From NCBI GenBank assembly GCA_963765145.1, contig CAVXVG010000029.1, forward strand, positions 128,001 to 192,000: a DNA stretch of 64,000 nt, read 5' to 3'. The stretch comes from Parachlamydiales bacterium (GTDB lineage: Bacteria > Chlamydiota > Chlamydiia > Chlamydiales > JAJFMK01). Positions 2,934 to 46,582 of the stretch are shown piece by piece (position 1 is the stretch's first letter; each line of letters begins with the position of its first letter). The notes beneath the pieces are model-generated. The model was not told where the DNA came from and did not search any database. It was given only the letters and a program-made list of their open reading frames with translations. A program made the translations under genes and the position numbers.

Positions 2934-3596
2934 ATGTCTATCATCACCAATTGGATCAGGGCCAATGCGCCCAGACTACCCGATGGAGAAACGCTCATCA
3001 ACTTTAAAATCGGGTTGAAAATCGGGGCAACCCTATTAAACCAGCTTCCTCCTACTAAAGCAGCCGGATCACTCATACTTCGCTCCATCAACGTAGCCAC
3101 ATCTGCAAGAATTGCCACCAATGCTAGAGACCGTTGGAGTTTTTTTATTGAAAGCACAAGAGTGACCATTCTTGCCATTAGCTTGGCGGGTGTTGCCACA
3201 GGACGCCCTCTACTTGAAGCAGCATACATGGTCTCTGATGTTGGCCTTGAGGCTATAGAGCTGGGCAAAGCCTTGTATGAGAAGGACCGAGAGGAAGCAT
3301 TAAGTCATTTAATGGATATCGGCATGAGCACTCTCACACTAACAGCGATTTTCACACATTCCAAACGCCTCCTAATGCTAGCAGGTACTATCAACATGAT
3401 CACATTTTGCACCCTCATGCTGAAAAAAGACTCTGTCCTTGCAAGCATCAACAAAACAATTAAGGCTCTAGGGCCACCCGAGGAAAAAACAGAGCTCCCA
3501 CAAAAGCGAAAAAGGCTGCTGCTTGAAACCGTTTATTACATCACATTGAGCCTTGGCGCCTGCAATAGCCTCTACAGCACAATTAGAAAGAAGTAG
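2934..3596 (+). CDS. multi-pass membrane hypothetical protein (paralog 2)
   Basis: Shares NW.R...P.LPD, IGA..LN.LPPT..AGSL.LRSIN, ASINK and RLL.E..YY with 1889-2875. Confidence 0.75.
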   Translation: MSIITNWIRANAPRLPDGETLINFKIGLKIGATLLNQLPPTKAAGSLILRSINVATSARIATNARDRWSFFIESTRVTILAISLAGVATGRPLLEAAYMVSDVGLEAIELGKALYEKDREEALSHLMDIGMSTLTLTAIFTHSKRLLMLAGTINMITFCTLMLKKDSVLASINKTIKALGPPEEKTELPQKRKRLLLETVYYITLSLGACNSLYSTIRKK

Positions 3597-3604
3597 TCTA
3601 CTAC

Positions 3605-4722
3605 CGCGAAGCGTTTGGAGTGCTAAACGGCCTTGTTGCATAATTAAGCTTAATTTGGACAAATATTGTAGCTTAGGCTTTAGAGGCACTTGCAAAAATC
3701 AGGTTAAGCTTAAAATAGGCCCGCAAGGGCCGAAATATGAAAGCCCAGCGCCGAAGGCCTGGGTAAGAGTTGCAAATAGAAATTGGAGTCCTGAAGGGAC
3801 GACATATCCTGTTCTATAAATAGTCTAGAAGGCAATTATGCCGTCCTTTCAGGACTCCAATTATATTTCACATTTGTAACCCAGGCCTTCGGCGCTGGGC
3901 TTTCATATTTCGGTCCTTCGGACCTATTTTCTAGAGAAAAACCAACTATTCGAATTTTGCAAGTGGCTCTTTAGCCTGAGCTTGTTTTGCGGGGTTTTAA
4001 CCCCGCACATCTTCTGCAGGACTAAAGTCCTGCAAAACGAGCTCAGACTAAAGGGGCACTTGCAAAAATCGGACTCCAGATCACAATAGACCCTTATGTA
4101 TTGCATTAACCTAAGGAAAAGCTTCCTATAAATTAAACAGGATGAACAGGATCGCTCATCGAGCGACAGGATAAGCTCCGCCTAGCTTTATCATTTTGAA
4201 AATAGAAATCATTTTGTTGGCGAAGCTTATCCTGTTCACCCTGTTCATCCTGTTATTTTTATCTTGTAACCAAGAACTCTTAAGAGATGTTAAGGGCTTT
4301 ATCAGAGTTTATTCTGATTTTTGCAAGTGCCTCTAAAGTCTAAGCTACATTTTTTAATTAGAGATTGAATTATGCAACAAGGCCGTGCTAAAGTCCTGTT
4401 TAGCACGGCCTTGTTGCATAATTGTTCGCAACGTTTCTCTACTCCTGCAGCCTTACAGGCTGCCAATTTTATTCTCCAACTTAACCCGGGGCGTTGCCCG
4501 CGGGCTGTTGCAACTATCCGGCTTTCAGCCGGAAAATCCTAGCAATACAGGCTTTTCCCTTGGCCTGAAAGGCCAAAATTGCAACAGCCCGTGGGCAACG
4601 CCCCGGGTTTAGGATGAAACTTTATATGGCAGCCTGAAGGGCTGCAGGAGAAACGGGGAATCACGTGCAATTATGCAACAAGGCCGTGCTAAACTCCTGT
4701 TTAGCACTCCAAACGCTTCGCG
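3605..4722. mobile_element. nested composite of palindromic/MITE-like repeats: A[B1[C[D1[E], D2[F]]], B2[G]]
   Basis: A arms CGCGAAGCGTTTGGAGTGCTAAAC/GTTTAGCACTCCAAACGCTTCGCG; B1 3629-4384 and B2 4407-4685 (TIR GGCCTTGTTGCATAATT); C 3665-4351; D1 3683-3969 and D2 4053-4333 (TIR GAGGCACTTGCAAAAATC, TSD TTTA/TAAA); E 3712-3930; F ~4074-4280; G 4442-4650. Confidence 0.9.
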
Positions 4723-4739
4723 GAATAAAAATAAAAGAT

Positions 4740-5927
4740 TTAGGCTTTGCGCAAGGCTTTCTTTTTGGATATTTGAAATAAAATGGGGTTCAACACAATA
4801 GAAATGATTGCGCAAGCAACAATAACGTCATAGCCTTCAACGGGCAAAAGCTCAATCCTTGAAGCTTCTTCAGCTAAGATAAAAGAGAACTCGCCGATTT
4901 GTGCAAGTGCAATCCCTACTGTAAGGGCTACTTGCCTTGAATAGCCCATACCAATGGTAATCAAAAAGGCAGTTAACGGCTTTATCAATATAATAACAGC
5001 TAAAATCCCCAGAAAAATTGGATAGTAGGAAATAACAATAGCAGGGTTAAACAACATCCCGATAGACAAGAAGAAAATAATCGAGAAAATATCTCTAAAG
5101 GGCAGCGCATGTGTTGCTGCTTGACGCCTGTCATTTGATTTTCCAATGATCATTCCTGCAATAAAGGCTCCAAGAGGAATTGAAGTGCCGAAAACGACCG
5201 CCGACCCCGTTGCTATCAAGAAGACAAGGGCTAAAACTGCTAAAGTGAACATCTCTTCAGAATGTAATTTAGCTACCTTAGCCAGTATATACGAAACTAT
5301 CTTCTGCCCCCATGTAAGCATTAAAGCAACCAATACTGCAAACTTTAAAAGCAGAAATAAAATAGAGCCTAAAATGTCGAGGCCAGAAAAATCGGTGCCG
5401 TGTGAAAAGGCAGCGACTTGAGGCAAAACAAGCAATACAATGACAGTGAAAATATCTTCAACGACAAGCCAGCCGATTGCAATTTGCCCTTCAACAGTTT
5501 TTAGAAGACGATTGTCCGTTAAATTCTTCACTAGAACAGCTGTGCTCGCGACTCCTACTGAAATCCCTGTAATCGCCCCTGCCATAAGAGACCAACCGGC
5601 ACTATAAGTTAATAGCATAGTGACGATGGTAGCTATTAGCGTTTGAGTCAACGCCCCTGTAATAGCTATGTTTTTTACCTTAATTAAGTCATCTATTTTA
5701 AAGTGCATCCCCACGCCAAACAGCATTAAGATGACACCAACTTCTGCAAGTTGTTCTGCAATGACTAAGTCGGCAACAAATCCAGGAGAAAACGGACCGA
5801 TAATATATCCAGCAATGAGATATCCGAAGACAGACGATAATTTCAACCTTTGCGCAATATAAGCAAAGACGCAAGCCAGAGACAGTCCTATGGTAAAAAT
5901 AAATAGTATCTCTAAATGTGCTTGCAT
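4740..5927 (-). CDS. CPA2-family cation:proton antiporter (YbaL/KefC-like), membrane domain only
   Basis: GYLIAGYIIGP, LAEVGVILMLFGVG, STAV, GWLVVED, GAFIAG and AQIGEFSF motifs. Confidence 0.9.
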   Translation of the reverse strand: MQAHLEILFIFTIGLSLACVFAYIAQRLKLSSVFGYLIAGYIIGPFSPGFVADLVIAEQLAEVGVILMLFGVGMHFKIDDLIKVKNIAITGALTQTLIATIVTMLLTYSAGWSLMAGAITGISVGVASTAVLVKNLTDNRLLKTVEGQIAIGWLVVEDIFTVIVLLVLPQVAAFSHGTDFSGLDILGSILFLLLKFAVLVALMLTWGQKIVSYILAKVAKLHSEEMFTLAVLALVFLIATGSAVVFGTSIPLGAFIAGMIIGKSNDRRQAATHALPFRDIFSIIFFLSIGMLFNPAIVISYYPIFLGILAVIILIKPLTAFLITIGMGYSRQVALTVGIALAQIGEFSFILAEEASRIELLPVEGYDVIVACAIISIVLNPILFQISKKKALRKA

Positions 5928-15158: not shown

Positions 15159-15268
15159 AATGTAGCTTAGGACTTAGCCTGAGTTCGTTTTTGCGGTTTT
15201 TAACCCGCAATATTCCGGCAGGACTAAAGTCCTGAAAAACGAGCTCAGACTAAAGTCTAAGCTACATT
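15159..15268. repeat. repeat family C (inverted pair of GTAG-type REP hairpins, REPIN-like)
   Basis: AATGTAGCTTAG...CTAAGCTACATT flanked by TAT on both sides; related copies at 3665, 21701 and 43137. Confidence 0.85.
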
Positions 15269-15624: not shown

Positions 15625-15719
15625 CGCGAAGCGTTTGGAGTGCTAAACTCCTGTTTAGCTTTCACTTTCACTGATAAGTCAAAGCTAAACAGGAGTTTAG
15701 CACTCCAAACGCTAGCGCG
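15625..15719. repeat. repeat family A, uninterrupted copy (95 bp palindrome)
   Basis: CGCGAAGCGTTTGGAGTGCTAAACTCCTGTTTAGCTTT...AAAGCTAAACAGGAGTTTAGCACTCCAAACGCTAGCGCG. Confidence 0.9.
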
Positions 15720-19343: not shown

Positions 19344-21464
19344 ATGTCCATTGATTTTAACCCATTAGCTCAAGCTGCCGTATTCCAACAATTCGGTTTA
19401 ATTGGTCCTTTGCATCGCGGGCTAGTAGATAGAGTTTCGAATCTATTTCAACCCCTCGTATTTATGGCAGAAGATGTCAAAAGAACGTTCTATCCTCCTG
19501 ATAAAACCCCATTGGACCGCACAATAGACAACTATGTCAAATCGGGCCGCATTGAAGAGGACTTTGACCAGGTAAAACCAGATCTACTGAAGGCTTTTCC
19601 TCAGGCAAAACGGTGGCAAATCGAGCAATATAAAACTATTTTTCAAACACTGTCAGACGAAAAATTAAACATTTTTTTAAACGAACTTTTTAAACAAGAA
19701 GCTGAGGGTTCGGTCGCTTTTTTAATTGACCGGATCACAAAAGTTCTCTCTTTAGAAAAAGTAGAATCTGCCATCCGTCACATCTTCCCTCTTTTTGAGG
19801 CTCGGCAAGCAGTTCTAGATATCTCTGGATTATCGGGACAAGACTTAAAACTAAAAAATACAAAGGTGCGTGATTCATTGATCGGAATCACCCTTCTCCA
19901 TTTGAAGGAGGGAATCGATCAAATGGCCGAACACATTCTCCGTACTTTTCATCTGAATAGATCTCCCCGCGACCATTATCGCGACCATCATATGGATAAA
20001 TCCTACCAACTTCAAAACAATTACTACATTCTTCAGCAAAATATGGCCCTTTTAGGAGGGTGGTTCTTAGGGTTATCTTCTCTTCTAGGAAGCAAATGGA
20101 AAGCTATTGTTGTCTCTACATTTTTAGGAACCTTTGGAGCGGCCTTCCTCGTTAGCTATGTAAAATGGTTTAAAACAGTTCCAGACGAATTTTTAGGTTA
20201 TAACAACCTAGTTTCGGATGTGATCAAAGGAAAGATTCCTCCTATTTATGGGCGAGAAGCCGAAGTTCAAGAGATCATTGACCAGCTAAAAGCCAATCAA
20301 AACAATACCCGCGTTCATCCGATTGTCTTGGGCAAAACAGGGGTCGGTAAAACAGCTTTGATCAATGCCCTTGCATGGAGATTAGCAAGAGGTGGGGACG
20401 GGCTTCCACCTAAACTCTTTTTGATCCCCGCAAGCGATTTAATTTCAAATCAACCCTATGAAAACAAGATTGAGATGATCAAAACTAGTTTAGAAGGCCA
20501 ACAACCTATCATCTTTATCGACGAATTCCATACAGCCTGCATTGAAAAGGGTCCAAATAGTGAAAAATTCAAAACCCTCTTTAACCCAGGTGGACAAGGG
20601 TTTCAATATTGTATTGCAGCGACTACCCAGTTGGAATATGAAAAGTACATCGAGCCAGACGTAGCTATGGCTCGCCGTTTTAAAATCATCGACCTTGACT
20701 CGCTTTCAGATAGTCAAACGTTCGGGGTCCTGTCTGATGCAGTGCAAGAAAATGGTGGAGGGTTAATTGTTGAACCTGAAGCTATCCGAAAACTTGCCTA
20801 TATTCGAAAGGAAGACCCCCGCTTTACAGAGGTGGTACAACCTTTCACTTCGATGTCTATCTTAGATCAGGCCTTTGCAAAAGCCCGCCCAAACTTAGAA
20901 AATTCCTCTATAGAAAGAAGCATGCTGGAAGATAAAAAAAGAGAATTGGAATGTATGCAAAAGGGTATTCCTCATCTATACACAGATGAAGGGAAAAAGA
21001 TGCTTAGCGACAAGCAGGCGATCGAGAAGCAAATTGCGGAAATTGATGAAAGGAGAGCTTTACAACAAAAAGAGCATATTGCTTTTCAGCAACTCTTACA
21101 CGCCGAGCATCACAGACGAACCACAGAGCTTTGGGCTACTATGCCCCTTTCTGACTTGATTAAGCAAAAGAAAGCGACAGACAAAGATGTGCTCTCTTTT
21201 ATTTTGTTCCATCATTATCTTGGCCATGGAATGAAAGCATTAATTGAAGAGAAAAAGCAGCTTCATCCAAATGCTTTTACTGTGAACACGCAATTAATAG
21301 ATCAGCTTCTTGCTGAACATGCAAAATCAAAAAAACACGAGGCTCAAGCATTACCCGAGACGACAGAACGTAAGAAGAACAGGATAAGCAGGATCGCGAA
21401 GCGGCAGGATCGGCTGCGCCGGCAGGATAGACTCCGTCTGGTGCTACTTTCTTTTGGTAAATAA
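19344..21464 (+). CDS. ClpA/B NBD1-like AAA+ ATPase with N-terminal extension and hydrophobic hairpin
   Basis: IYGREAEV, GKTGVGKT, IIFIDEFH, IAATT..EY, AMARRF; only one AAA domain. Confidence 0.8.
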   Translation: MSIDFNPLAQAAVFQQFGLIGPLHRGLVDRVSNLFQPLVFMAEDVKRTFYPPDKTPLDRTIDNYVKSGRIEEDFDQVKPDLLKAFPQAKRWQIEQYKTIFQTLSDEKLNIFLNELFKQEAEGSVAFLIDRITKVLSLEKVESAIRHIFPLFEARQAVLDISGLSGQDLKLKNTKVRDSLIGITLLHLKEGIDQMAEHILRTFHLNRSPRDHYRDHHMDKSYQLQNNYYILQQNMALLGGWFLGLSSLLGSKWKAIVVSTFLGTFGAAFLVSYVKWFKTVPDEFLGYNNLVSDVIKGKIPPIYGREAEVQEIIDQLKANQNNTRVHPIVLGKTGVGKTALINALAWRLARGGDGLPPKLFLIPASDLISNQPYENKIEMIKTSLEGQQPIIFIDEFHTACIEKGPNSEKFKTLFNPGGQGFQYCIAATTQLEYEKYIEPDVAMARRFKIIDLDSLSDSQTFGVLSDAVQENGGGLIVEPEAIRKLAYIRKEDPRFTEVVQPFTSMSILDQAFAKARPNLENSSIERSMLEDKKRELECMQKGIPHLYTDEGKKMLSDKQAIEKQIAEIDERRALQQKEHIAFQQLLHAEHHRRTTELWATMPLSDLIKQKKATDKDVLSFILFHHYLGHGMKALIEEKKQLHPNAFTVNTQLIDQLLAEHAKSKKHEAQALPETTERKKNRISRIAKRQDRLRRQDRLRLVLLSFGK

Positions 21465-21796
21465 CAAAAAATAGAGTGGCTTCGCCGAAAATAAAAGTTC
21501 TTAGAGAGGCGAAGCTACTTTCTTTGTTTTTCTCAACGAACAAACCGCTCATGCAAGGTGAAACTTATCCTGCCGGCGCAGCCGATCCTGCCGCCGTAGG
21601 CGATCCTGTTCATCCTGTTAAATTTATAGGAAGCTTTCCTTAAGTTAATGCAATGCATACAAGTCCATTTTGAGCTAAGCCTGATTTTTGCAAGTACCTC
21701 TTTAGTCTGAGCTCGTTTTTGCGGGTTTTAACCTGCAAGCTTCCAGCAGGACTAAAGTCCTGCAAAACGAGCTCAGGCTAAAGCCTAAGCTACAAT
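21378..21796. repeat. truncated nested repeat: F, right TIR of D and most of C
   Basis: AACAGGAT.../ATCCTGTTCATCCTGTT arms; GATTTTTGCAAGTACCTC at 21683-21700; TTTA; then C ending GCTACAAT. Confidence 0.85.
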
Positions 21797-25132: not shown

Positions 25133-25380
25133 AATCAAAAATGGAATTTTGCTTTTTCTAACGCGTGAGCGTTTGGAGTGCTAAACTCCTGTTTAGCTTT
25201 CACTCTCACTAACAAGTGAAAGCTAAACAGGAGTTTAGCACATACTGTAATTGCGCTTCAGAGCTTAGCCGGTAAGAAAATGGGCTGTTCTAGGAGGGTT
25301 TTAAAAACCCCACGGAGTAGTACTAGACTCTCCAGGCTTTGGCTTGGTAGCCTAAGCAAGCAATACAGGAGAACAGCCCA

Positions 25381-26481
25381 ATGAAACATTATATCGGTTT
25401 AGACGTATCTTTGAAAACTACTGCCATCTGCATCATGGCTCAAGATGGTAAGATCATCCGAGAGATGACAGCCGCTACTGACCCTTTAGCTATCGCAACT
25501 GCGATCAAGACGACCAAGCTCACTATTGAAGCTATAGCAATTGAAGCTGGTGGAACAAGCCGATGGCTTGTTCAAGAACTTCAAGAGCTTGACCTTCCAG
25601 CGATATGTATCGACTCTCGCAAAATGGCTGCCGCCATCGCAATCAAAGCCAATAAAACAGACAAAAACGATGCGAGGGAAATCGCAAACGCCCTTCGGAC
25701 TGGCTACTTTCAAGAGGTCTATCAAAAAAACGATACAAATATGAGCATCAAAAGTCTCGTAAACATCCGACGCAATCTGGTGATACAAAGAACCATGACG
25801 AGTAACTGTATCCGCGGTACTTTGAGATGTTGTGGAAAGCTTTTTTTAGGGTCTAGTAGTAGTCAAAAGAACTTCATAGAGAAGGTAACAGAGTCGATAC
25901 AAGATCAACCTGAAGAGGTCGCAATGGGCATTCGTGCACTTTTAGTAACCTTTTCTCAACTTCACAAACTAGTAGATGAAATAGACAAGAAGATCGAAGA
26001 CATAGGAAAGAATGACGAAGTCGTTCAGCTGCTAATGACAGTTCCTGGTGTAGGGATCGTAACTGCAGTGAGCTATAAGGTTGAAATTGGAGACCCAAAA
26101 AGATTCACACGATCGAGGTCAGTTGGAGCATATGTTGGGATGACTCCAAGGCAGTATAGTTCAGGTGAAACCGAGCATCAGGGGAAAATAACAAAGATTG
26201 GATCAAATGAACTCAGAGCGCTGCTATCTGATGCCGCCATGAGCATGATGTATCGATGCAAAACATGGAGTAGAGCCAAAGTTTTTGGGCTAAAGATCAA
26301 TAAGAAGCATGGGCATAAAAAAGCTATAGTTGCCCTTGGTCGGAAGCTTGGTGTGATAATGCATCGAATGTGGACAGAAGGTAAACCATTTGAAGCTGGT
26401 GAAGTCGAGAAAAAAGAAATTGATAAAGTAACCAAGCCAAGTCGGAAAGAGAAGAAAAAATCAAAGCAGATGGCTGCTTAA
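25381..26481 (+). CDS. IS110-family DEDD recombinase/transposase
   Basis: GLDVS, IEAG, KTDKND, VPGVG, GMTPRQYSSGE (catalytic Ser), ALGRKL. Confidence 0.96.
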   Translation: MKHYIGLDVSLKTTAICIMAQDGKIIREMTAATDPLAIATAIKTTKLTIEAIAIEAGGTSRWLVQELQELDLPAICIDSRKMAAAIAIKANKTDKNDAREIANALRTGYFQEVYQKNDTNMSIKSLVNIRRNLVIQRTMTSNCIRGTLRCCGKLFLGSSSSQKNFIEKVTESIQDQPEEVAMGIRALLVTFSQLHKLVDEIDKKIEDIGKNDEVVQLLMTVPGVGIVTAVSYKVEIGDPKRFTRSRSVGAYVGMTPRQYSSGETEHQGKITKIGSNELRALLSDAAMSMMYRCKTWSRAKVFGLKINKKHGHKKAIVALGRKLGVIMHRMWTEGKPFEAGEVEKKEIDKVTKPSRKEKKKSKQMAA

Positions 26482-26556
26482 GAAAAGTTAAAAAAGTTCT
26501 CAAAGAGCGAAAGAGCAGAGAGAGTAAGAAAAAAGATTCAAATACGAGTTCGAAAT

Positions 26557-26706
26557 AAGGTTAAGACGCTTTGGAGTTGACGCTAATAAGACGTCGTGTA
26601 GCACATTGTCTTACCTTGTTTCTTTTGGAAAGTATGTTGGGGCTGAAGATCAGCTAATAAGGCCGAAATCTTCAATAAAAAGGACCCCGGAGAGAACTAT
26701 GACCGA
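26557..26706 (+). ncRNA. predicted bridge/seek RNA (target- and donor-binding loops)
   Basis: Target guides TTTGGAGT (26570-77) and GTGTAGCAC (26596-604) inside stem AAGG(T)TAAGAC/GTCTTACCTT; donor guides AGTATGT (26631-37) and AGAGAAC (26691-97); transcript ends unknown. Confidence 0.85.
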
Positions 26707-26872
26707 GTTAGAATTTTATTTTTTACGATCAAGCTTTGGAAGCCCATAGAGGAAGTTGTCAATTATCTTGGGGGAAGTATCCCCCAAACCCCCTCGGCTT
26801 AGGAAGGGGAAAGAGAAAAAATCATGCTTGCCTAGAAACGCAATTAGAGAACTCCAAACGCTTCGCGGACTT

Positions 26873-39441: not shown

Positions 39442-39706
39442 CGCGAAGCGTTTGGAATGCGAAACTCCTGGTTAGCTTTCACTTTCACTGATAAGTCAAA
39501 GCTAAACAGGAGTTTAGCACGGCCTTGTTGCATAATTAACCACTCCAGATCTCGAAAGAAAATTTGAGGTGGTGAGAAATAAATAAACGCCCTTCGGGCG
39601 TTTATTTCTATGCAGCGAGTAATTGTACAACAAGGCCGTTTAGCACTCCTGAGTAACTCAACTTTAATCAAAAAAACACTTTCTTCCTTGCTCCAAACGC
39701 TTCGCG
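39442..39706. repeat. repeat family A copy carrying element B (39521-39637) and a 41 bp extra insert (39650-39690)
   Basis: B flanked by a 9 bp duplication GTTTAGCAC (39512-20, 39638-46); second insert flanked by duplicated CTCC. Confidence 0.88.
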
Positions 39707-43125: not shown

Positions 43126-43257
43126 GCGAATTTGACAATGTAGCTTAGACTTTAGTCTGAGCTCGTTTTTGCAGGTTTTAACCTGCAACCATTGCCACGG
43201 GTTAAAACCCGTGGTAACGAGCTCAGGCTAAAGCCTAAGCTACATTGTTAAATTCGC
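43126..43257. repeat. repeat family C (43137-43246) with extra outer inverted arms
   Basis: GCGAATTTGAC-AATGTAGCTTAG ... CTAAGCTACATT-GTTAAATTCGC. Confidence 0.85.
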
Positions 43258-46380: not shown

Positions 46381-46582
46381 GGTTTTTTGGTCACAATAAA
46401 AAATAACAGGATGAACATGATGAACAGGATAAGCTTCGCCAACTAAATTAATTTTTATTTGCAAAATGACAATGCTAGGCGAAGCTTATCCTGTCGCCGA
46501 AGGCGATCCTGTTCATCCTGTTTAATTTATCGGAAGCTTTTCCTTAGATTAGTGCAATACATACGGCTACTGTGATCTGGAG
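46381..46582. repeat. repeat family F, near reverse-complement copy of 4074-4280
   Basis: Shares arms and the asymmetric flank GGAAGCTTTTCCTTAG..TGCAATACATA..GTGATCTGGAG. Confidence 0.88.

Follow-up and report, generated by a model that had tools for sequence, protein, structure and literature searches.

An intergenic nest of seven repeat families, stacked up to five deep, in a Parachlamydiales genome

The intergenic sequence at positions 3604-4723 of the window (the whole 64,000-nt stretch analysed here: positions 128,001 to 192,000 of contig CAVXVG010000029.1, assembly GCA_963765145.1, from a Parachlamydiales bacterium) is 1.1 kb long and consists entirely of repeat DNA, in which seven kinds of repeat, here termed families A to G, are stacked up to five deep. 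The question raised by this locus is whether so deep a nest is real and, if it is, how it was built. It is a real stack of seven families, probably put together by a few transpositions of ready-made composites and not by seven insertions. Transposition was established for only two of the containments, that of family B into family A and that of family D into hairpin loops.

The nest and its layers

The source genome was assembled from a metagenome (2.68 Mb in 37 contigs, approximately 44% G+C; completeness 84.8%, contamination 3.26%); coordinates preceded by C and a number refer to its contigs. Comparison of 3550-4780 with its own genome by blastn gave 694 high-scoring segment pairs, with a copy depth of 10-137 inside the nest and of 1 beyond about 3593-4737. 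The depth changed in sharp steps at 3628/3629, 3683/3684, 3968/3969, 4053/4054, 4332/4333, 4367/4368, 4423/4424 and 4668/4669. Seventeen inverted-repeat pairs were found within 3550-4780, and the outer 25-nt arms (3604-3628 and 4699-4723) were 100% complementary. Taken together, the depth steps, the inverted-repeat pairs and the perfect outer arms show that the nest is real, far beyond chance. A complete parse of the 1.1 kb into nested families had been proposed by a reading of the letters and open reading frames (ORFs) alone (the sequence-only reading), and, apart from details corrected below, it was upheld by the copy-number steps at its boundaries.

The outermost layer is a short form of family A. 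Its left arm (3604-3628), which is the arm found in 144 arm pairs genome-wide, ends in the 9-mer GTGCTAAAC (3620-3628), the left copy of a 9-bp target duplication. [quoted passage not shown] An internal A-type hairpin, GTGCTAAAG TCCT GTTTAGCAC (4385-4406), which differs by one base from the flanking GTGCTAAAC copies, separates B1 from B2, a 279-bp MITE at 4407-4685 with the same TIRs (4407-4423 and 4669-4685). The right part of A (4686-4723) is made up of the right copy of the duplication (GTGCTAAAC, 4686-4694), the loop TCCT, GTTTAGCAC and the outer arm. Both B1 and B2 adjoin the GTGCTAAAC/GTTTAGCAC motif of A, as the sequence-only reading had it.

Inside B1 lies C (3668-4348), a GTAG-tagged doublet of repetitive extragenic palindromes (REPs) of the REPIN type, which in its empty form is 104 bp long and whose two hairpin loops are here filled by D1 and D2. 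D1 (3683-3969) is a 287-bp MITE of a second DDE element and is flanked by a duplicated TTTA (3679-3682 and 3970-3973); D2 (4053-4333), a 281-bp MITE of the same element, is flanked by a duplicated TAAA (4049-4052 and 4334-4337). These flanks confirm that D occupies both symmetric REP loops of C. The cargo of D1 is E (3717-3925), a 209-bp multi-hairpin palindrome and a non-autonomous form of an IS200-type Y1 element. That of D2 is F (4098-4290, core 4136-4254), a palindromic element with TIRs of repeated AACAGGRTGAAC units, which extends about 35-40 bp further on each side than had been drawn. B2 carries G (4442-4650), a second 209-bp multi-hairpin palindrome related to an IS200-type Y1 element.

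Copies elsewhere in the window had been put forward as empty or free forms of these layers. Empty copies of C were indeed present at 15162-15265 and 43140-43243. The supposed empty A copies at 15625 and 34121 are A copies, but of the canonical long form with two hairpins, whereas the A of the nest is the short form. Free copies of F were borne out genome-wide, 44 of 54 lying outside the other six families, but the one cited at 46381 still holds sequence like the interior of D2. A stretch at 21378-21796, taken for F within D within C, has one D end only.

The nest lies between convergent genes, with only about 23 nt of spacer left unfilled; one of them, an ORF, ends at 3596, and a gene for a CPA2-type cation/proton antiporter (PF00999) on the minus strand ends at 4740. 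A scan of the whole window against Rfam at gathering thresholds gave 0 matches.

Insertion sites and transposases of families B and D

Canonical A is a palindrome of approximately 96 bp with the outer stem GCGTTTGGAGTGC. It encloses two hairpins, GTGCTAAAC-TCCT-GTTTAGC and GCTAAAC-AGGA-GTTTAGCAC, and each tip bears a mini-hairpin, CGC-NNN-GCG. Pairing of its arms with at most two mismatches yielded the 144 pairs. Uninterrupted long copies, with 78-86 nt between arm starts, made up 92 of these and serve as empty sites for B; five were short one-hairpin copies (40 nt), two further short pairs measured 24 and 50 nt, and 45 were longer (from 133 nt), most with insertions and a few of the longest spanning ordinary genes. 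The A of the nest is thus of a rare one-hairpin form that was seen uninterrupted five times genome-wide, and a deletion between 7-nt repeats that the two hairpins share in direct orientation may have produced such short forms.

The sequence of A varies between copies. At the tips the CGC...GCG mini-stem is constant genome-wide and the enclosed 3-4 nt are variable (GAA, AAC, AGC, GCTA, GTTA). The internal hairpins covary (TAAAC/GTTTA, GAAAC/GTTTC, GCAAC/GTTGC), their structure being held while the sequence changes.

The 17-bp end motif of B, GGCCTTGTTGCATAATT, was matched 137 times in the genome with at most two mismatches, and 136 matches had a full 9-nt flank. In 101 of the 136 the end adjoined the A 9-mer (GTGCTAAAC-like in 60, GTTTAGCAC-like in 41), so that most copies sit at a fixed position within a palindrome, as do those of a REP-targeting insertion sequence (IS); the remaining 35 ends were elsewhere, some of them next to variant A hairpins. 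B was found at either of the two hairpins of A. Its target is a palindromic 15-bp site of the staggered-cut type with symmetric flanks, GGA-GTGCTAAAC-TCC, of which GTGCTAAAC is duplicated. Among 56 paired copies, which start at 97 bp (most 97-500 bp, two approximately 1115 bp), the flanks formed a direct 9-bp duplication with at most one mismatch in 27 and with two mismatches in three; they were inverted in six and neither direct nor inverted in 19, and one pair lay at a contig end. Membership of the 9-mer in the B TIR was considered and rejected, the left flank being GTGCTAAAC and not its complement.

An intact autonomous copy of B was located at C2:1-1115, in the same A site as the MITEs. 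It is 1115 bp long, has 17-bp TIRs and encodes a 316-aa transposase (P0001) that matched the IS5-family model NF033579 at 296.2 bits (cut-off 140) as well as PF13737 and PF01609. A frameshifted copy of the IS is present at C29:69607-70720 and a third, broken copy on C25. On account of its size, its 9-bp duplication and its match to the IS5-family model, B is a MITE set of an IS903-like element of the IS5 family; we take its TIR also to resemble that of IS903.

The interiors of B shells placed at the A 9-mer were diverse, ranging from the IS itself to C, G and F, one A and a REP that resembles a terminator. One series of shells grows in size, from C21:288939-289043 (105 bp) through C2:92841-93015 (175 bp), C21:205202-205506 (305 bp) and C21:33766-34107 (342 bp) to C29:84641-84986 (346 bp). 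In it two copies of a terminator-like hairpin enclose a second GTAG REP (TTGTAGCCCAGGG...), and the REP is split by more palindromes, making another growing nest.

Ends of D were sought by their GAGGCACTTGCAAAAATC-like TIRs, with 84 matches, 71 of them retained after filtering. The loops of C REPs held 43 of the 71 ends (TTTA 23, TAAA 19, TTTT 1) and those of A hairpins eight (TCCT 5, AGGA 3). D thus also has most of its ends, 51 of 71, at a fixed position within a palindrome. The other 20 lay elsewhere and included three at variant C stems, one at a variant A hairpin and two D-next-to-D junctions. Flanks of the 31 paired copies were identical over 4 bp in 21, inverted in seven and neither in three, one of which is a false pair. 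A duplication of 2 or 3 bp cannot be told from one of 4 bp in the C loops; the flanks TCCT/TCCT, AGGA/AGGA and AAAA/AAAA found elsewhere fix it at 4 bp. A 4-bp target duplication is a feature of the IS5 group.

Three MITE types of D were distinguished: D1 (approximately 285 bp, with E), D2 (approximately 281 bp, with F) and D3 (163 bp, with neither). Pairs ranged from 163 to 358 bp, apart from one IS. This IS, the only gene-bearing D (1459 bp, C27:207333-208791), has the same TIRs and lies in the TAAA loop of a C within a B within an A. Its single-copy 381-aa protein (P0002) matched DDE_Tnp_1 (PF01609, 55.8 bits) and DUF772 (PF05598, 47.2 bits) above their cut-offs; scores against the NCBIfam models were 119.8 for IS1182 (cut-off 270) and 69.4 for IS5_4 (cut-off 140). 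Its relatives are many metagenomic proteins of approximately 380 aa labelled just 'transposase' or 'hypothetical protein'. D is a MITE set of a second DDE element, which duplicates 4-nt hairpin loops. Since different D types sit in free C copies and in C copies of different B shells, its insertions into C were repeated and independent. A second doubly occupied C was found at C5:75753-76308, with D3 in the left loop and D2 in the right.

Two other arrangements of D were encountered. At C36:44462-45061 a C holds D1 and D2 back to back with one TTTA in common, the centre of C being lost. At C26:84729-85341 a single A hairpin is occupied twice, its 9-mer by B(G) and its loop by D2(F), with 4 nt between the two.

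B1, B2, D1 and D2 all have the TIRs of an autonomous IS, no coding capacity, a target duplication and many copies. The proposal that B and D are non-autonomous and are directed to fixed sites in another repeat family was sustained by the counts of ends and by the target duplications, and the autonomous partners that it called for were found in P0001 for B and P0002 for D.

The same junction types, with diverged host repeats, occur in G001, a complete one-contig genome of the same genus. Five of nine B ends adjoin A-like 9-mers there, a GTAGCT REP stem precedes seven of 22 D ends, and the genome also has E-like cargo. Of 31 genomes compared, those of the same genus have flanking genes without alignment at the DNA level, so that no orthologous empty or part-filled site could be read.

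Cargo, composites and the history of the locus

A genome search with Y1_Tnp (PF01797) returned six matches. C has the structure GTAGCTTAGGC TTTA GCCTGAGCT ... AGCTCAGAC TAAA GTCTAAGCTAC, with the 5' tag GTAG ahead of an imperfect palindrome and two inverted REPs, as in a REPIN. Two genes for REP-associated tyrosine transposases (RAYTs), at C5:119131-119676 (103.3 bits) and C28:46757-47143 (91.9 bits; shortened, 129 aa), matched NF047646 (cut-off 80), and each has the left half of C on one side and the right half on the other; a RAYT with GTAG REPs at its borders had been named among the partners to look for. The two halves of E, in the order that they have in the element, border a Y1 gene at C24:56681-57169, and halves of G border another at C21:218943-219416, turned so that their outer ends point towards it; these genes scored 71.4 and 76.7 bits, respectively, against the IS200 model NF033573 (cut-off 55). 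C, E and G are thus palindromes that belong to single-strand (Y1/HUH) transposons, the genes of which are found at other places in the genome. E and G are related to long-armed IS200-type elements, in the arrangement termed 'TIRYT', and are non-autonomous. E was present in D1 MITEs at 16 of its 21 loci, with homologous but diverged spacers. G was counted at 44 loci and is found in B shells with a dozen spacer variants. F has 54 paired copies of 72-372 bp; a gene-bearing form was sought among them and none was found (longest 372 bp) in an assembly that is 84.8% complete.

A script assigned each copy to the repeat that directly encloses it. This census undercounts B in A (both A arms had to be recognised), and for G a 150-bp minimum was applied. 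Family A was nearly always free (128 of 132 copies, with two in B). For B, 29 of 56 copies were in A and 25 without a paired A, and C was mostly free (61 of 76), with 13 copies in B. D was distributed among C (18 of 31), A (4) and no host (9). E was in D in 15 of 17 cases. F was free in 44 of 54 cases, in D in nine and in B in one, and G was in B in 27 of 38 and free in nine. A depth of five was reached at three of 278 top-level loci (3604-4723, C29:40434-40912 and C26:177602-178107) and a depth of four at two more. The two A copies in B, at C21:240417-240624 and C29:265509-265753, are complete A palindromes carried as cargo; the first of these B elements itself adjoins an A hairpin, giving A inside B inside A. 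The F within B is at C2:82213-82573.

Several parts of the nest recur elsewhere as units. The B1 spacers, the C stem and D2(F) reappear, approximately 99% identical, at C29:40434-40912 in a different, long A, where D2 (C29:40503-40782) is likewise approximately 99% identical to that of the nest. B2(G) recurs at C29:29334-29634 and C18:130803-131103 with 100% and 99% identity, and D1(E) recurs at 96-97% identity. Since composites recur whole, the five levels at this locus need perhaps three or four events and not seven. Cargo-free B or D shells with the same spacers were sought genome-wide and none was found; the smallest shell of the B(C) type (C12:8335-8435, 101 bp) still has one REP hairpin inside and is best read as a deletion product.

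A history along the following lines would account for the nest. The MITEs would be mobilised in trans by the transposase of their own IS, taking palindromic cargo along (C or G in the case of B, E or F in the case of D). A B(C) shell with D2(F) already aboard would have inserted into a short A, and D1(E) would subsequently have entered the remaining REP loop of C. B1, the internal hairpin and B2 may have come jointly, with the exact GTGCTAAAC duplication at 3620-3628 and 4686-4694. The order of A and B segments is X-a-[B1]-a*-L-a'-[B2]-a-L-a'-X', where a is GTGCTAAAC, a* is GTGCTAAAG, L is the TCCT loop and a' is GTTTAGCAC, the outer arms of A being denoted X and X'. The 9-mer flanks of B2 are inverted, not direct, so two simple insertions into one A cannot give this arrangement. 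One history that fits exactly is the insertion of a composite of B1, hairpin and B2 into 'a' of a short A, in which case the odd base of a* would mark the hairpin carried along with it; conversion from another B(G) copy is an alternative. The inverted flanks of B (6 of 56 pairs) and D (7 of 31) are what would be expected from recombination between two copies in symmetric hairpins, and doubly occupied hosts such as this nest would be likely intermediates.

The sequence-only reading had taken the locus for an ordered hierarchy of families, each of which lands in another. In its strict form, with seven separate non-autonomous elements each landing in the next family by about seven site-specific insertions, this is unlikely. 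It agrees with the strong enrichment of guests in their hosts (G in B 27/38, E in D 15/17, D in C 18/31, B in paired A 29/56) and with their position at or near the host centre. E and G, however, recur as whole D1(E) and B(G) units with homologous, diverged spacers, B1(C(D2(F))) reappears whole and 99% identical, and shells of the same type lacking cargo were not found. The order is moreover broken by A in B (2), D in A (4) and F in B, and 61/76 C and 44/54 F loci are free. Neither the strict order nor the landing of each family in another was therefore retained. The opposite proposal, that no family has target specificity and that a single ancestral A+B(+C+D) composite was copied by the mover of A, the site preference being an inherited junction, draws on the same recurrence of composites and on the dispersed nature of A itself. 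We judge it quite improbable, as all B shells, however unrelated their interiors, share one 9-mer as their site, in most cases duplicated, and are found at either A hairpin; C loops are taken by three D MITE types as well as by the IS, the C being free or in different B shells; and the same junction types are seen in a second species of the genus, whose A and C variants have diverged.

Two further explanations were weighed. Misjoining of repeats from different loci in a metagenome-assembled genome must be considered where the assembly has 37 contigs, 84.8% completeness and 3.26% contamination and where each layer is a multi-copy repeat of 96-100% identity. Among 14 public runs none contained more than 0.11 of the sampled words. 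Contigs of four of them (X1-X4, at 90% likeness) comprised short repeat pieces and the flanks of a relative at approximately 92% identity, and two (X4 record 32 and X2 record 13) start at 4699, inside the A right arm next to the antiporter gene; none spans 3604-4723, so that the assembly is neither supported nor refuted by them. An artefact is nevertheless very improbable, given that all junction types recur elsewhere in the genome and in the one-contig genome of the same genus, that the duplications around D1, D2 and the B1-B2 block are intact, and that the 296-kb contig passes many such repeats, which suggests long-read support. Growth mainly by recombination, hairpin-templated repair or slippage between palindromes would make sense of the short A and C forms, explicable by deletion between short direct repeats, of the inverted flanks and of the mismatched flanks in 19 B pairs. 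These processes do not generate exact 9-bp and 4-bp direct duplications, nor do they account for gene-bearing B and D at the same sites as their MITEs, and as the principal route they are improbable in the extreme.

Construction by a few transpositions of composites is accordingly the reading preferred here, and the following weighs against it. The composite account of B1, hairpin and B2 is one of at least two possible histories, and the junction palindrome between B1 and B2 is unique in the genome. The off-site ends amount to 35/136 for B and 20/71 for D. Recombination or conversion between copies has reshaped many loci, as is seen from the 19/56 B pairs with flanks neither direct nor inverted, and could have built part of the nest. 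Lacking a same-spacer shell of B or D without cargo, C, G, E and F may have inserted into shells or the shells may have formed around them. No mobiliser of A or F was found in the 84.8%-complete assembly. Transposition is deduced from sequence.

A broader proposal, tentative and rather doubtful at present, is that two mechanistically unrelated classes of transposon each land in hairpins of the other and so build, in alternating layers, self-extending 'Russian-doll' palindromes that travel whole. The D transposase would read DNA shape, insert wherever an apical loop of 4 nt is extruded (TTTA/TAAA in C, TCCT/AGGA in A) and duplicate that loop, and Y1-type palindromes would settle in the centres of DDE-MITE palindromes.

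Known systems and further observations

REPs are targeted by IS1397, ISKpn1, IS621, ISPpu9/10, ISPa11, ISRm22 and ISNm1106, from five IS families including IS5 (Tobes and Pareja 2006, PMC1525189). As far as the portions of that report consulted go, the present case shares with them an IS at a fixed place in an extragenic palindromic repeat. It differs in having two DDE elements that are bound to different palindrome families, in that MITEs make up most of the copies, and in the duplication by D of a 4-nt loop in two unrelated hairpins. IS903, of the IS5 family, has the target WTTYA-N9-TRAAW and a 9-bp duplication (Table 1, PMC2577343). B resembles it in its IS5-family model, 1115-bp length, 9-bp duplication and symmetric target (GGA-N9-TCC); according to the part of that source used, the preference of IS903 is loose, whereas about three quarters of B ends lie at one 15-bp site of one repeat.

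In Coxiella burnetii the MITE QMITE2 is a hot spot for IS1111, whose target palindrome was earlier described as a GTAG REP (PMC5896051). There, too, a palindromic core lies in a TIR-bounded MITE and the IS in the core, a three-level stack in which the MITE marks the insertion sites; the guest is of the DEDD type (IS110/IS1111), and the sections of the report consulted describe no deeper stacking and no DDE MITE in loops. REP dimers at the centre of longer palindromes were described by Di Nocera et al. (2013, PMC3733652) for GTAG-15 of Anabaena variabilis and CGTC-1 of Halothiobacillus, the outer palindrome not being found empty. In the text consulted those outer palindromes are not tied to a transposase, whereas here they carry the TIRs of identified DDE elements and come with target duplications. 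The same source gives the name TIRYTs to Y1 transposases flanked by long TIRs, and the Y1 gene of E is likewise flanked by long arms. C is comparable to the REPIN-RAYT system (Bertels and Rainey 2011, PMC3116915; PMC3337134), being an inverted GTAG REP doublet with a RAYT gene that has the same REPs. In contrast to that system, as far as the parts consulted describe it, two RAYT copies are present and approximately 13/76 C loci ride in a DDE MITE.

The kind of arrangement is therefore known, from REP-targeting ISs and from REPs inside MITE shells, and the depth is unusual. Nested plant MITEs were reportedly used by Jiang and Wessler in 2001 to read insertion preference. Those are eukaryotic and of one transposon class, whereas DDE and Y1 classes alternate here in a 2.7-Mb bacterial genome. 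The wording 'nested MITE' occurs in the consulted part of PMC5172404, and a review of prokaryotic MITEs (PMC10969869) contains the word 'nested' 0 times. In a literature thinly covered for subscription journals, no bacterial nest of four or more levels was found, nor any published alternation of DDE shells and Y1 palindromes this deep or DDE element duplicating the 4-nt loops of two unrelated hairpins.

As a natural experiment, this genome bears on the way in which near site-specific targeting is acquired by ordinary DDE transposases: an IS903-like enzyme is bound to a palindromic site of 15 bp and an IS5-like one to the loops of two unrelated hairpins, and both genes are intact. MITE shells can spread the palindromes of single-strand transposons in the absence of the enzyme that belongs to these, and palindromes occupied twice may break down into further elements whose inverted repeats are longer. 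A lesson for annotation is that the long 'structured' palindromes between genes of such genomes should be taken as stacks of selfish elements and not as RNA genes.

The mobiliser of A was sought among inserts between A arms, which yielded only B, D, a putative IS110-type element and ordinary genes. None of the six Y1_Tnp matches is flanked by A, and such a gene could be missing from an assembly that is 84.8% complete. At window 25169-26861 (C29:153169-154861) a 1693-bp insert with a 376-aa frame lies between the right hairpin and the outer arm of A, and inserts of 1690-1694 bp like it are present in other A copies. The right arm of A is broken after GCACTCC by TGAGTAA(G/C)TC... at window 39638-39690 and in at least five other copies (for example C21:36336, C29:283944, C36:83978, C5:10305 and C23:11370). 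This junction resembles the end of yet another element aimed at A, of which approximately 50 bp is left at window 39638.

A ~323-aa open frame at C29:104197-105350 has an N-terminal Y1_Tnp match (60.6 bits) and, after it, tandem repeats of approximately 45 bp (ATAAAGCAAAACGCAAATGTCCGAATGCCAGGCCTGACCCCAAAC), and none of the seven families flanks it. G-like repeats were detected in several other families of the order among the 31 genomes. The right arm of G (window about 4563-4649) has matches of 72-82% identity in at least five other genera (G009, G012, G016, G025 and G001), and at G012:C5:46515-46903 these matches form overlapping tandem rows.

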